DNA of 46,130 bases from Nitrospinota bacterium (GTDB lineage Bacteria; Nitrospinota; Nitrospinia; Nitrospinales; VA-1): positions 1 through 46,130 of the forward strand of contig JAYNIA010000015.1 in the NCBI GenBank assembly GCA_038108555.1, written 5' to 3'. Position numbers: made by a program. Below, one piece after another: positions 7,901 through 13,900 of the stretch. Every line of letters begins with the position of its first letter. The first letter of the stretch is position 1.

Positions 7901-10900
7901 AAAATTGATGTAGAAAGCGAATTAAGCAAAGGTTCTTGTTTCACAATCACTCTTCCAGTTGAGGATAAAATATGAATAAGCATTCCATTTTGTTAGTTGA
8001 TGATGAAGAGGCAATTCTTTATGCCCTTGAAAAGGATTTAAGAAAAGAGGGTTATTTTGTCGATAGCGCTAGCGGCGGCCAGGAAGCCATCGAAAAATTG
8101 CGAAAAAAAAATTTCGACCTTACCATAAGTGATTTAATGCTCGGCGACATAAATGGAATTGAAGTACTAAAATAAGCAAAAAAGAAATCCAATGCACCTG
8201 TAATTGTGATAACGGGCCACGGAGAATTATCTTCAGCGATTGATTCTTTACGATTAGGTGCCTTCGACTATATTGAGAAACCCTGTGGACGAAAGGAGTT
8301 TATTTCCAAGGTAAACAGCGCTCTCCAACAACACAGGGAAAAAATGGATCTGGATAATAAAATTAAGGATATTGAAGATGAAGTTAAAAATCTTGAGGTT
8401 GAAAACTGGGCCAAAGATAAAATTGTGAAACTTCTTGAAAACAATCAATCTGTACTGGAAACAAATCTGGAAGAAAAAAACAAGGAACTTCAAAGAAAAA
8501 ATATCGCCTTGGCAGAAATATTGAACCAGCTGGAAAAGGAAAAAGAAAAAATTAAGTTAAATATCCAGGCAAATGTGGACCATATTATTCTTCCCCTTTT
8601 GACAAAAATAAAAAGTCAAAATTTAATCATTGATGAAAATTACCTAAAACTCCTGGAAGAAGCCTTTTCAAATCTGGCATCTGAATTTGGAGTTGAGCTT
8701 TCGCGCATTGAACCAAAACTTTCCCAGAAGGAAATGGAAATTTGCCATATGATTCGATCGGGATTGAGCACTAAAGATATCGCTACTGGACTAAATATTT
8801 CAGACCGAACTGTTGAGACCCATCGCACAAATATTCGAAAAAAACTAAAACTGTCGAATAAAAATGTAAACCTTTCAAATTTCTTGAAAAACCCTTAATT
8901 TATTGTACTTTAACCCTCTTATCTCCCCCTCTCCCTAAATAAGTACTTTTTACGCAGTTTATACTAGTTGCATTCCTCCTTTTTTTCTTGAACCATAAAT
9001 TAAAGAACAAAACTGACACTCATTTTCCGAAATTTGGACAGTTAGTGAGGTTTGGGTTCTTTTCCATTTCGAACCCTAAATCAGATTTATGTAAAGATCT
9101 GCTTCAAATTATTTTAAAAAGTTTAATTTTTGGAGAAAACAATTATGAGTTATCAATCTGGAACAAATAATCCAAATCCTTCAGAAGGGCTTTTCTCCAA
9201 AATTTTTGGAGGGAAGAGCGGCTCATCTCTTTTGAATAGCTCCGAAAACATTCTCTCCTGTTTGAATTCAGCCCAGGCCAATTTGCTGTTTGCGGATACT
9301 AACTTCACTCTGGTCCATGCAAATGATAAATCGATTCAAACTCTGCAAACTATTTCTCAGGAAATTCAAAAAGAGTTTGGAGTCCGTCTCGATGATATTG
9401 TTGGAGGTTCTATTCACAGGTTCCACAAAGACCCCGGCCGTATTGAGAGAATTTTAAGGAATCCCTCCTCCCTGCCCCATGTTGCAGAGTTCACCTTTGG
9501 GGGTATTACGCTTGCAGCTAACGTCAATGCCATTTACGGAAACAACAGGCAGGTTATTGGCTATGTGGTGAATTGGGAAAACGTAACCAAAAAGAAAAAA
9601 ACCGAGGTTGCTATGAGCAGGGCCATGTCTATATTGCAACATGCACGTACCAACATCATGTTCGCAGATATGGATTTTAATATCACCTATGCAAACCCGG
9701 CCACAATTAATACGCTGAAAACCATTGAACAGTATCTTCCAGTAAAAGCAGAAAACCTGGTTGGAACATGCATTGATGTTTTCCACAAAGATCCGGCTCA
9801 TCAAAGAAAAATTCTTTCTGATGCCACCAACTTACCCATCGATACCAATATTCAGGTTGGATCTGAGATTCTGGATTTACTCGCAGTGGCGATTTTTGAT
9901 GATGACAACAATCGATTGGGAACCATGCTTTCATGGGATGTCATAACAAAGAAACTTGAAGCTGAAGCAGAAATCGGACGCATTAAGTCGATGATGGAAA
10001 ACATGCCCGTCAACGTAATGATGTGTGATCTGGAAGAATTCCGAATTACCTATTTAAATCCTGAATCCCTGAAAACCCTTAAACTTGTTGAAGCTTATTT
10101 GCCAGTAAAAATTGAAGAAATGCAGGGTTTATGCATTGACAGACTTCACAAGAACCCCAGTTACCAGCGAAACATTTTACTAGATCCAAAAAATCTACCG
10201 CATTCGGCCCAAATTCAGGTGGGTCCGGAGACTCTAGACCTACTGGTCAGCCCTATTTTAGACAACAAAGGCACCTACATTGGTCCCATGGTCACTTGGA
10301 GTATCATCACTGAAAAGCTGGCTTCAGAGGCTAGAGAAAAAGAACAAATGGAAAACATGCAGAATGTAATTACCCATATCACTGAAAATTCCCAGACTTT
10401 AGCAGGAGCCTCTGAAGAATTGACAGCAACCAGTCAACAAATGGCAGGCAACGCGGAGGAAACTTCCGCACAGGCTAATGTGGTTTCTGGAGCCTCTCAG
10501 GAAGTGAGCGGAAGCGTCCAAAGTGTTGCGACAGGAACAGAGGAATTAACCGCCAGCATTCGGGAAATTGCGCAAAACGCCAATGAAGCTGCACGGATCA
10601 CAACAGAAGCTGTGGAAATGGCAGAAACGACAAACAAAACTATCAATCAACTGGGAGATAGTTCCCTTGAAATCGGAAACGTCATTAAAGTCATCACCTC
10701 AATCGCAGAACAAACAAATTTGCTTGCATTGAATGCCACTATTGAAGCTGCCAGAGCAGGAGAAGCGGGAAAAGGATTTGCCGTGGTTGCGAATGAAGTA
10801 AAAGAACTGGCAAACCAAACCGGGAAAGCTACGGAGGACATCAGCCAAAGAATCTCCGCTATTCAGGGAGATACCAAACAAGCTGTGGAGGGAGTCGGGA

Positions 10901-13900
10901 AAATCAGCGAAATCATCAACAAGATAAACGACATATCCAACACAATCGCAAGTGCCGTTGAAGAACAAACCGCAACGGCAAACGAAATGACCCGCAGTGT
11001 TCAAGAAGCAAGTAAAGGAACGGCAGAGATCGCCAACAATATTTCAGGAGTCGCCCAGGCTGCTGAAAGCACTACCCAGGGAGCAAGCGACAGTCAAAGC
11101 GCGGCTTCAGAACTGGCACGCATTGCCGCAGAATTACAAAACGTGGTAAACCAAAATCAAAATTCTTCGGCTCAAAAAAAAACTCTATTTGAGCGGATAG
11201 GAGGAAAAGGAGCGGTCGAAGCTGCAGTTGAAGTTTTTTACGATAAGGTAATGGGCGATTCTGATTTGAAACCCTTCTTTGAAGGTGTGGACATGGGCCG
11301 GCAAAAGGGTAAGATGAAAATATTTCTAACCTATGCTTTTGGCGGAACCCCCAATTATTCCGGTAAAAATATGAGAGAAGCGCATAAAAGACTGGTTCAG
11401 GAAGGTTTGAATGAATTCCATTTTAATAAAGTTATGGAACATCTGGGTAATACTTTAAAAGAATTAAATGTTCCAAATGATTTGATTCAGGAAGCAGCGG
11501 CCATTGCACTTTCTACAAAGAATGATGTTTTGAACCGGTAATAGTGAACGCTCTAAAAACTGTTATTAACTGGATTCTGGGTTAAATTTCTCCAGGAAAT
11601 CTTTTTCGATACCAATTCATTATCTGGGGATAGACCGAGTCGTCATCGGACATGTCATAATCCAGCTCCTCCTCCAAAAGGACCTGCGCCATAAGTCCCC
11701 TTTCCCTAAGCGGAACAGCACCTATTGCCAATTTTGTATTTATATTTTCCATTAAACCATCGAACTGCTCAGGGTCATCCAATTCTTCGGGCCTTTCCAT
11801 CAAACAAATCTCCTATATTTCCAATAAGCTAAATTCTTTTACAAATTGCTCGCCTGTTAATTATACTCTAAAGTAATAAACCAAACACCAAATTGAGATC
11901 TTTATGGTTGGGAAAACCCCCCGTGTCGAAAAACATACCCCACCTCATTTTCCATTTGAGGCCCCTCCCTTTCGGTTGTCAATGGGATTGCTCAAAGTCC
12001 CCGAAGCGGAATGGTTTGAGATTTATAATCTGGAAGAGAGGGCAACTCAATTAAACGAAAAAAGAAAGCTACTTGCTTCTCAGAACAATGAAGTTTTTAT
12101 GGCCGACCCCGCAGCATTGAGAGCATCGGAGGAAGTTTTGGAATTGATGGTGAACCACTTGCCAACCATTCATCCCGATTTTTATGCGCGAACCAAAAAC
12201 TTCATAAAAGTTTTGGATCATTCAGGTTTTGAAGGAGAGGGGTTTCCTATCAACCCGGGAACGAATGGATTGCATCCGTTGGACTTATCGGCACGGCTCG
12301 TACAGGAGGATCTGGCGATAATGTTGCCTTCTGAAAAAGGACCGTCATCCTGGTGGTTGGCAGGAGGCAGCATCGCCTTTCCATCACGCTGGAATCTAAA
12401 AGAAAAATTTCGACAGACAATGGACGTTATTCATTCGCCCGTCCCTTTTTATAAAGAACAGCTTAAGACACCCACAAATAATTTCTTCGATTCAATGCCC
12501 ACAAACGAAATCTTTTCCCGTCGCAACTGGTCATTGCACGACAGCCCTGCCTTACGCCAGGATGGAACCCCATCCAAGAAACCAAAACCTTCAAAACAAT
12601 TTAATCCGAAAAATGTGGGTGAAAATTTATGGCTAAGAGTGGAACGACAAACCCTGCGAAAGCTTGAAATAACCGGTGCCATATTATTTACAATCCGGAT
12701 TCATTTACGACAATTAAAACAAATTGTTAATTATGATGGAGTGGCTGAGCGGTTATCCCAATCCCTTTCCGCACTTCCCTCCGAAATGCATGAATACAAA
12801 CAAACGGATGTCTTTGCAGATTCCGTACAAACCTATCTGAACCAGTTTTAAAGACTTAAAGGCTCAGCAGCTTTTTCAATGAATCAAAAGTGACTTCCCT
12901 TCTCTAAAAAACACTACCTTTTTTTCCATTTATTTTCATTTTTGCATAGCATTACTTTTTCCATTTACTTTTACCCTTAAGATTTCCCTCCCCATCGACA
13001 ATAGCACCTTTTAAGCATAAAAAATATTTGCAATATAAATAGTTTTTGGATGACTTTTATCCATAGATTCTCTAACCTGATAGAACAGATCCCAATACAA
13101 TTTCAGCCCACATACGCTGACTATGAAAAGCAAGGTTCTTATCGTTGATGATGAAATAAAAACCTGTGAAATTTTGCAGAATTATTTCCAAAATTTATTC
13201 GATGTCGATGTGGCCTATGACGGCCAGGAGGCAATGGAAAAAGTGGAAGCATTTAATCCCGATTGCGTTCTTCTGGATATAAAAATGCCAAATATCGATG
13301 GACTCCAGGTTCTAAAAAAATTGAAACCACGGTTTCCCGATATCAAATTTATTATGGTTACTGCGAACAGGTCGGTAAGTAAAATGATGGACTCGATTAT
13401 GAGCGACGCCTTTGATTACGTGCCCAAGCCCATTCAACTGGAAGAACTGGAAAAGAAAATTCTATTGGCTCTGGAACAACCCCATTAACCTTTTCTTAGC
13501 GATTCCCAAAACAGATTTCTGGAAACCATTTTCTTTTCCTGTTTGTTGGCAAGATTATCTTTTGTAAGACTGGGTCATGCTTTATATTTTTCAAAGTTGG
13601 GAATTGCAAGCTCAGCAACTTGAATTTTTTCTAAATTTGAACACCTCCCGTAAACGATCTTTCCCGTAAATTTCTACTGCAACTTTCAGGTTATCGATCA
13701 TTAACTGCTTTTCCATTTCGCTACCATAGGCCCTGGGTTTTTCAGGATCTTGAAGGGTTGCGTTTTTTTCATATGAAGGAATCATATATTTTCTTTAAAA
13801 TGAAATTATTTGGAATCAATCCCGTAAAACGTCGCCATCAGTTTTGCAATTGGACTCATGGATTTGCCCTTTGAAGAACCATTTTTCCCCGAAATTTCGG

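Follow-up and report, generated by a model that had tools for sequence, protein, structure and literature searches.

The window analysed is a 46,130-nucleotide stretch of DNA from a marine nitrite-oxidising bacterium of the Nitrospinales. Positions 9145-11541 on its forward strand form a single open frame without interruption. The 798-residue product contains three PAS domains, a methyl-accepting chemotaxis protein (MCP) signalling hairpin and a complete group I truncated (2/2) haemoglobin at its C-terminus, which bears out the architecture described in the survey's finding. The features are listed below.

9132..9135, + strand: GGAG ribosome-binding site in the sequence 9 nt 5' of the receptor ATG
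9145..11541, + strand: PAS-PAS-PAS-MCP-truncated haemoglobin receptor gene (P0001); soluble product, 798 aa
9250..9588, + strand: PAS1, about aa 36-148, Aer2-type; His94, Trp144
9622..9948, + strand: PAS2, about aa 160-268, Aer2-type; His214, Trp264; best match to the P. aeruginosa Aer2 PAS (3vol, 4hi4)
9982..10308, + strand: PAS3, about aa 280-388, Aer2-type; His335, Trp385; best match to the V. cholerae Aer2 PAS (6ceq)
10363..11154, + strand: MCP signalling hairpin, about aa 407-670, 38H-like length; tip Glu540
11155..11181, + strand: receptor-globin linker, aa 671-679; short, variable and of low confidence in the model
11174..11182, + strand: A9 run at the receptor-globin joint, in frame; the sole run of at least eight A in the gene
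11182..11538, + strand: group I truncated (2/2) haemoglobin, aa 680-798; its 5' end lacks a start codon

Pfam places PAS_8 at residues 279-318, MCPsignal at 475-638 (2.1e-34) and Bac_globin at 680-788 (8.7e-15). No hydrophobic membrane segment was found in the 798 residues, as the survey had stated. Scans for a promoter and a terminator gave signals no better than chance. The fusion of the globin to a soluble chemoreceptor is real. A second, independent Logan assembly contains a protein of 798 aa in the receptor's own protein cluster, and the same globin tail is found in 21 other intact fusions, which excludes an assembly chimera or a read-through artefact. A separate globin gene is excluded by the missing start codon.

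PAS domains, hairpin and globin

All three PAS domains have the E-eta His and the I-beta Trp, the defining residues of Aer2 (PMC10107281). These are kept in 13-17 of 17 aligned fusions, and the remainder are mostly gaps. In the DxT motif, the Thr is retained and the Asp is lost. The best NCBIfam match of the receptor is Vibrio Aer2 (2e-100), with a score of 337 against a cut-off of 1200. Vibrio vulnificus Aer2 (PMC10107281) is also soluble, with three tandem PAS domains and the same His and Trp residues. Unlike it, the receptor has no di-HAMP, its hairpin is not of the 36H class, its gene is not located in a che cluster, and the globin occupies the place of the C-terminal pentapeptide. Pfam gave no HAMP match between the last PAS domain and the hairpin. 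In the monomer model (pTM 0.33), PAS3 and the hairpin are joined by one helix, residues 389 to 537.

The PF00015 match of the hairpin is above the cut-off and the tip around Glu540 is conserved. Methylation-consensus pairs are located at 424/425, 452/453, 466/467 and 606-608. Compared to Tsr, each arm has a gap of one heptad and the arms measure about 131-133 residues; by the class rules, we take the hairpin to belong to the 38H class. Column identity in the linker is 0.41. Because the linker is short, variable and of low confidence, a rigid coupling of the globin is not indicated.

The last 123 residues align with Synechocystis cyanoglobin (1e-34). The 54% identity to Synechocystis GlbN (1mwb) and the group I class were both confirmed. 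The key residues are Phe698 (B9), Tyr699 (B10), Phe712 (CD1), Gln720 (E7), Lys723 (E10), Met724 (E11) and His747 (F8), and two Gly-Gly motifs are present as IGG and FGG. A His at F8, Phe B9-Tyr B10, Phe CD1 and two Gly-Gly motifs are features of group I (PMC4720485). The globin region of the model has the 2/2 helical fold, with target TM values of 0.83 to THB1 (6cii) and 0.81 to 1dly. Synechocystis GlbN and Chlamydomonas THB1 (42-44% identity) share this fold, Phe B9, Tyr B10, Phe CD1, Gln E7 and His F8 with the receptor globin. It differs from GlbN in being fused, in having Lys instead of His at E10 and Met at E11, and in lacking a His aligned with GlbN His117.

Tyr B10, Gln E7, Lys E10 and His F8 are present in all 21 other tail fusions. 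E11 is Met rather than Gln in the receptor and in 9 of these 21. Mean column identity is 0.82 in the globin, compared to 0.71-0.76 in the PAS domains. Apart from the receptor tail, the assembly has no Bac_globin match.

Placement of the globin in chemosensory proteins

HemAT and other globin-coupled sensors of the S family also combine a globin and an MCP hairpin in one soluble chain. Their globin is an N-terminal 3/3 sensor globin, whereas the receptor has a C-terminal 2/2 group I globin and no match to Protoglobin. The survey's contrast with HemAT is supported: the chemoreceptor is soluble and conserved, and a complete 2/2 globin follows its hairpin. Its proposal that truncated haemoglobins are new among chemoreceptor sensor modules is not supported. 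Receptors with Bac_globin, PAS and MCPsignal were reported in silico in seven genomes, with O2 sensing proposed, by Sharma et al. (2018, PMC6194562). Corallococcus coralloides Cc_4972, described there, is likewise soluble and has a PF01152 globin, PAS and MCPsignal in one chain; the text gives no domain order for it. In the search made here, such receptors outside the Nitrospinales have an N-terminal globin (96 of 120 matches), in contrast to its C-terminal position and Gln E7 in the window. The N-terminal receptors mostly have Leu at E7 (89/96) and form a separate group in quick trees.

Inputs at the C-terminus have precedents in the hemerythrin of Desulfovibrio vulgaris DcrH and the PilZ domain of Azospirillum Tlp1/Aer (PMC13401364). 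DcrH resembles the receptor in having a ligand-binding module behind the hairpin, one that binds O2 in DcrH, but it is membrane-bound with a di-iron site, whereas the receptor is soluble with a haem globin. How the DcrH module couples to the hairpin is not understood (PMC13401364). A 2020 review lists chimeric T1 globins for eukaryotes only (PMC7475203). None of the papers listed in the literature searches describes a chemoreceptor with a truncated globin at its C-terminus. Work on multidomain truncated haemoglobins (Hade et al. 2017) may bear on the novelty of this placement. Among the papers listed there was also no experimentally studied truncated-globin chemoreceptor, and no description of a globin in CheA or of slippage in such a receptor gene.

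The survey cited 12 related genomes as carrying the fusion and left the domains of their large frames to be checked. An unbroken receptor-globin frame is present in G036, G060 and G038 only. In G055 and G056 the joint is in frame and a frameshift is located further upstream. The frames of 870-905 aa in the other seven (G093, G046, G028, G032, G084, G031 and G026) are CheA fusions, not receptors, with the globin between the Hpt and dimerisation domains; Pfam confirmed this identity for G093 and G032. Receptor-globin and CheA-globin are not strict alternatives, as G036 and G056 have both.

Among 120 matches, the globin is a receptor tail in 23, counting the receptor itself and one broken copy, and is located at the receptor N-terminus in 96. 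A separate search placed it inside CheA in 76 of 120 matches. The tail is found on receptors with several different front ends, including one in G036 without haem PAS domains. Proteins of 240 aa consist of the hairpin tip and the globin alone, with no other sensor domain (monomer model, pTM 0.37). An origin of the tail in which a deletion joined a receptor gene to a cheA-globin gene located downstream is not favoured: E7 is Leu in 68 of 78 CheA globin domains and Gln in 21 of 21 tails. The quick globin tree, with 123 columns and 52 of 100 forks open, limits inference of origin.

Within the receptor's own genus, the tail occurs in 1 of 17 genomes, and a tri-PAS receptor with 61% identity has no globin. 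The globin is broken in G040 (on 8 contigs) and decayed at one locus of G042 (C31). The globin-less relative and these broken or decayed tails show that the tail is dispensable.

The A-run at the joint

The codons at the joint contain a run of nine A, and both alternative frames stop within 8 codons. Five intact globins without start codons are found out of frame behind A8 or A9 runs in four genomes: G039, G041 (two loci), G042 and G043. The run is A8 in G039 and A9 elsewhere, so that different corrections are needed. The five show no second lesion, and their pairwise dN/dS of 0.07-0.17 is similar to that of the receptor part. Their first codons keep the amino acids with silent changes, 5' of any internal start. 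The A9 state is present in contigs from two samples. In two proteins that share 669 of 670 residues, the state of the run is the sole difference; its length also varies at the DNA level.

The frame differences in the relatives are not assembly noise. In a control on G041, G042 and G043 (772 kb, G039 lying outside it), 180 A/T runs of at least eight were found. None of the 80 that could be scored was shifted; another 25 were located at the edge of a match and 75 outside any match. A single frameshift in 457 matched regions was located away from any run. Homopolymer error was rejected on this basis as the source of the out-of-frame relatives. A classical -1 ribosomal frameshift with a stimulating hairpin is not supported either, since only one of the five joints folds better than its shuffles.

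In relatives of genus g5 there is good support for an A-run that would allow the receptor to be produced both with its globin and in a globin-free form. Switching in the copy studied here is only suggested. Its A9 is weak evidence, because 3 of the 16 [QE]KKT motifs found in long frames of this genome, counting the joint, are A9 and several in-frame relatives have no long A run at the joint. The only further A-run loci among the metagenome and genome matches listed, L070-L072, are in frame, with runs of 7, 7 and 3. No RNA dataset was listed for one relative's locus (L034). A similar arrangement is found in Thermus thermophilus dnaX, where an A9 run sets tau/gamma switching and a C-terminal domain is added or not. 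Here the run is a candidate switch and, unlike in dnaX, its length also varies in the DNA.

Possible roles of the globin

Neither CheA nor CheW was found in this assembly (G000), and a scan of 30 window proteins revealed no che genes. Flagellins, FliG, CheR and CheB are encoded in the genome, and contig C29 stops where genus relatives begin a cheB-cheW-cheA-cheX-cheY block. The absence is probably an assembly gap, as the survey had argued.

We propose that the protein is a cytoplasmic, methylatable chemoreceptor that would feed the flagellar CheY-CheX-CheA-CheW-CheB system of this Nitrospinales bacterium. As its PAS domains are Aer2-type haem sensors, it probably holds four haems, three in the PAS domains and one in the globin. 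Judging from the conserved residues, the PAS haems would bind O2 and drive the hairpin directly, with no HAMP relay. They keep the haem His and the O2-binding Trp of Aer2, and so are the likeliest main input rather than the globin. The globin would be joined by the flexible 9-residue linker to the hairpin base, adjoining PAS3 and the methylation helices, a place equivalent to that of the hemerythrin in DcrH. Its Tyr-B10/Gln-E7 pocket may bind O2 more tightly than the PAS haems and react with NO; it would therefore report very low O2 or NO, and could bias the hairpin or adaptation. In group N, high O2 affinity correlates with Gln at E7/E11 (PMC4720485), and the Met at E11 in the receptor and nearly half of its relatives makes the high-affinity inference weaker. 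The A-run may turn the globin on or off in cells or populations by RNA-polymerase slippage or slipped-strand length change. We favour this reading, with O2 sensed mainly by the PAS haems and a loosely tethered globin that could add a second, optional input for O2 or NO, and consider its chances evenly balanced. The recurrence of closely related globins on receptors, in CheA and on bare hairpin tips, and the strong conservation of the tail globin, speak for it; the short, variable linker and the dispensability of the tail speak against it.

More tentatively, the group I truncated haemoglobin of the Nitrospinales could be a mobile, switchable gas-sensing part, placed behind a hairpin, in CheA P2 or on a bare tip, with the A-run setting the share of receptors that have this tunable O2/NO channel. 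If the globin signals, 2/2 haemoglobins would join the sensor domains of chemotaxis. This would also suggest how marine nitrite oxidisers steer in the low-oxygen, NO-producing settings that they inhabit. If the A-run is a programmed switch, the domain composition of a chemoreceptor would be set by recoding. With its natural globin-less and tip-only relatives, this soluble receptor makes both truncated-globin chemoreceptors and signalling from behind the hairpin accessible to truncation and E. coli assays.

The globin has the pocket seen in stand-alone proteins of the cyanoglobin type, which is equally compatible with catalysis. The globin may be a tethered scavenger, acting as an NO dioxygenase or as an O2 buffer. 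It would then keep NO or nitrite away from the PAS haems without itself signalling, and the hairpin-tip proteins and CheA insertions would bring it to the array. We regard this as a possible but less probable role. The group I GlbN of M. tuberculosis is a known NO dioxygenase (PMC7082302), a copper nitrite reductase occurs in nitrite oxidisers of this group, and the THB1-like pocket, the flexible linker and the absence of a second Bac_globin match in the assembly agree with it. However, no reductase partner is encoded beside the receptor gene, whereas a stand-alone globin relative (L051) adjoins a 2Fe-2S/FAD reductase, and the nirK copy in the window has an internal stop. Protection of PAS haems also leaves unexplained the globin in CheA P2 and the G036 receptor.

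A passenger globin is unlikely; on this view a neighbouring globin gene was joined to the receptor by read-through and is now disappearing, with the A-run as a mutation hot spot and the out-of-frame loci as young pseudogenes. The broken and decayed tails, the upstream frameshifts in G055 and G056, the two run lengths and the rarity of the tail in the genus point to such loss. The 21 intact fusions, the higher conservation of the globin than of the PAS domains, and the lesion-free out-of-frame globins with their conserved first codons and receptor-like dN/dS argue against it.

The least probable role is relaying haem or electrons to the PAS domains, so that their haems are loaded or re-reduced. 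In its favour, the globin would adjoin PAS3 by topology, Lys at E10 may make its haem six-coordinate (PMC4720485) and the PAS haems of Aer2 can readily become oxidised in vitro (PMC10107281). Against it, the globin is also found on receptors and mini proteins without haem-type PAS domains.

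Architecture of the receptor

The 798-aa receptor joins three PAS domains, an MCP hairpin and a C-terminal group I truncated haemoglobin.

9145–11541, forward strand: receptor-globin gene, a single 798-aa frame
11174–11182, forward strand: A9 run at the joint between receptor and globin (Gln-Lys-Lys-Thr), in frame; no other such run occurs in the gene

Pfam matched MCPsignal at residues 475–638, Bac_globin at 680–788 and, weakly, PAS. No membrane segment was found in the protein. The AlphaFold model, a monomer with mean pLDDT of 71.6 and pTM of 0.33, contains three PAS folds, a single helix (389–537), a return helix up to residue 671, a linker of low confidence (671–679) and then a helical globin. 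In Foldseek searches, the parts of the receptor matched PAS domains of Aer2 and truncated haemoglobins of group I. The frame, Pfam and structure matches thus bear out the survey's finding of a soluble receptor with PAS, MCP and C-terminal truncated globin domains.

The PAS domains matched, among solved structures, the sequences of Aer2 PAS only (3vol, 6ceq, 4hi4). The top NCBIfam model was Vibrio Aer2, with a score far under the model cut-off. In Aer2, haem sites are defined by a PAS haem His and an O2-binding Trp, according to PMC10107281. Alignment indicated that each PAS domain keeps the His (94, 214 and 335) and the Trp (144, 264 and 385). The receptor probably holds four haems, because all three PAS domains retain these residues and the globin would add another. 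Lying in line with the hairpin, the PAS domains most likely provide the main input. The receptor is not an Aer2 by membership, since it lacks the di-HAMP and pentapeptide of Aer2 and its hairpin differs, with one heptad gap per arm relative to Tsr and arms of about 131–133 residues. By the class rules, we take this hairpin to be of class 38H.

The last 123 residues matched solved cyanoglobins and THB1 (1e-34 to 7e-30). In the globin, B9 and CD1 are Phe, B10 is Tyr, E7 is Gln, E10 is Lys, E11 is Met and F8 is His. The residues at B10, E7, E10 and F8 are shared by all 21 other tail fusions that are intact, and E11 in them is Gln (12) or Met (9). PMC4720485 associates Gln at E7/E11 with high O2 affinity within group N, and Lys at E10 with a possible six-coordination. 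Conservation across 17 aligned fusions is 0.82 in the globin, 0.71–0.76 in the PAS domains and 0.41 in the unconserved linker. The receptor globin is the only Bac_globin match in the 92% complete source assembly.

The gene is an orphan in the window, behind genes for a PAS histidine kinase and a LuxR-type regulator (Pfam). Directly behind it lies a haem-dependent oxidative N-demethylase alpha-like gene (11904–12851, forward), and a double Tll0287-like c-type haem protein is encoded nearby (15708–16871, forward). A copper nitrite reductase (nirK-like) gene (21433–22419, forward), divergent from an Rrf2 regulator (20820–21251), contains an in-frame TAG at 21646–21648, either a real lesion or an assembly error; in a relative the frame is unbroken (333 aa).

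The truncated haemoglobin had been proposed as a new chemoreceptor module. This domain combination is already in print: PMC6194562 describes, in silico, receptors with Bac_globin, PAS and MCPsignal from seven genomes; its text does not state their domain order. In the accessible sections, PMC13401364 treats Aer2, HemAT, C-terminal PilZ and DcrH without the word 'truncated', PMC7475203 gives chimeric T1 globins for eukaryotes only, and PMC8717448, PMC7082302 and bioRxiv 2022.05.07.491037 contain nothing on truncated-globin chemoreceptor fusions. No description of C-terminal globin placement, globin in CheA or the A-run was found in searches of open-licence papers. The C-terminal-globin receptor is real.

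The A-run at the joint

Both alternative frames behind the A9 run stop within eight codons. Other in-frame joints carry A9 (related genome G036) or A10 (G040). Intact globins lie out of frame behind an A9 run in G041 (two loci), G042 and G043, and behind an A8 run in G039. These five globins have no start codon at the 5′ end. By a simple counting method, all ten pairs of them, which are kin and not independent, give dN/dS of 0.07–0.17 at dS of 0.65–2.7, similar to the receptor parts of three orthologues (0.086–0.11).

The G042 joint is covered, without difference or gap, by contigs of two samples of one study, one of which may be the source of G042. Two related contigs (82–83% identity) also cross it without a gap. 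All 80 scorable A/T runs in 772 kb of G041, G042 and G043 are in frame. A single 90% cluster includes proteins with the globin fused (804 aa), with it broken (729 aa) and with the receptor alone (682 aa). The receptor-only protein matches the in-frame one at all but 1 of 670 residues and ends directly after the lysine run. Run length thus also varies in DNA, unless one of the compared assemblies errs. No conserved hairpin was found behind the run.

Several observations argue against a switch at the run. G040 has a truly broken globin, a second G042 locus has a decayed one, and a long run is missing from many relatives whose joint is in frame. As for the copy in the source genome, A9 is present in 3 of 16 like motifs of that genome, the copy itself included.

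Distribution and possible role of the globin

Residues 560–798 were used as query, and the best 120 of 4597 matches were sorted, a ranking that favours proteins with both domains. Among these 120, the globin is C-terminal in 23 (the query itself, 21 intact, one broken), N-terminal in 96 and an unrelated tandem globin in one. The N-terminal kind is named, among the same 120, from Acidobacteria, Planctomycetes, Myxococcales and Nitrospirales, and 89 of the 96 have Leu at E7. Quick trees of globins and of hairpins, which took in 21 and 14 of the 96, respectively, place it in a separate group. Of 120 phylum genomes, 25 contain close matches to joint plus globin, all in the receptor's own order; 18 genomes of the other families gave none.

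The tail is found on tri-PAS, PAS-HAMP, Cache-type and Tll0287-type receptors. It is scattered over the hairpin tree, where well-supported branches force at least four changes. The hairpin of the 798-aa receptor groups with globin-less receptors of its own genus, which suggests that parts were exchanged among paralogues. Proteins of 240–249 aa consist of hairpin tip and globin and nothing else; examples (loci L045:7009-7728 and L046:6931-7656, proteins P0338-P0341) have neither methylation region nor other sensor domain. Stand-alone single PAS proteins of 160–184 aa (L034:8659-9138, L037:1891-2370, L036:11148-11663, L048:5159-5710) resemble the receptor PAS and lie downstream of several receptor-globin loci. 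By length and score, many proteins of 270 aa and 400 aa (within P0242-P0334) appear to be tandem arrays of two or three truncated globins of group I.

The survey listed 12 genomes for the fusion. The fusion is unbroken in G036, G060 and G038; in G055 and G056 the joint is in frame, with a frameshift upstream. In the other seven the globin sits inside CheA. Globin and CheA dimerization domain share a frame in 12 of 102 genomes of the order, and Pfam confirmed the order Hpt-globin-dimerization-ATPase-CheW-CheW in four of four globin CheA tested. A protein search found globin in 76 of the 120 CheA matches listed; by pattern, it precedes the dimerization motif in 64 of these 76. Examples from genomes of the order are L054:8659-11268, L063:8401-11151, L064:8481-11222 and L058:8652-11291, where the globin occupies the usual P2 place between Hpt and dimerization domain. 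Similar proteins are also named from Alphaproteobacteria. Directly upstream of one globin-bearing CheA gene, L058:5068-8169 encodes a receptor of 1034 aa, in which three truncated-globin repeats at the N-terminus (one lacking His F8) are joined to two PAS-like domains and a hairpin.

The haem binding, ligands and coupling proposed for the receptor come from sequence and model. With moderate confidence, we favour a reading in which the PAS haems would pass the main O2 signal into the hairpin, the globin would be a second, optional O2/NO input at its base, and the A-run would set whether the globin is present. A second input is supported by the repeated recruitment of globin into three chemosensory positions and by the tip-only proteins, which carry globin without another sensor. 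That the globin is a tethered NO scavenger is possible, at a lower probability. A passenger in the course of loss is unlikely, and a haem or electron relay is more improbable still.

Chemotaxis partners in the source genome

CheW and the CheA dimerization domain were not found in the source assembly, which does contain CheR, CheB, flagellins and two FliG. In genus relatives, a cheY-cheX-cheA-cheW-cheB block adjoins genes that here end contig C29, and the C29 end aligns to the relatives' DNA until just short of this block. An assembly gap, as the survey had proposed, would be the simple reading of the absent cheA and cheW, and these data support it.

The main CheA of the genus (L270:11875-14901, L271:5588-8500) carries a tandem pair of Hpt-like domains and lacks a globin. 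The CheA in its gene position has one Hpt plus globin in G036 and one Hpt only in G042. The second receptor of the source genome (L052:7265-10024, contig C4) appears to be in two pieces, a frame of 267 aa with a four-helix sensor and a frame of 642 aa with PAS-PAS-HAMP-MCP.
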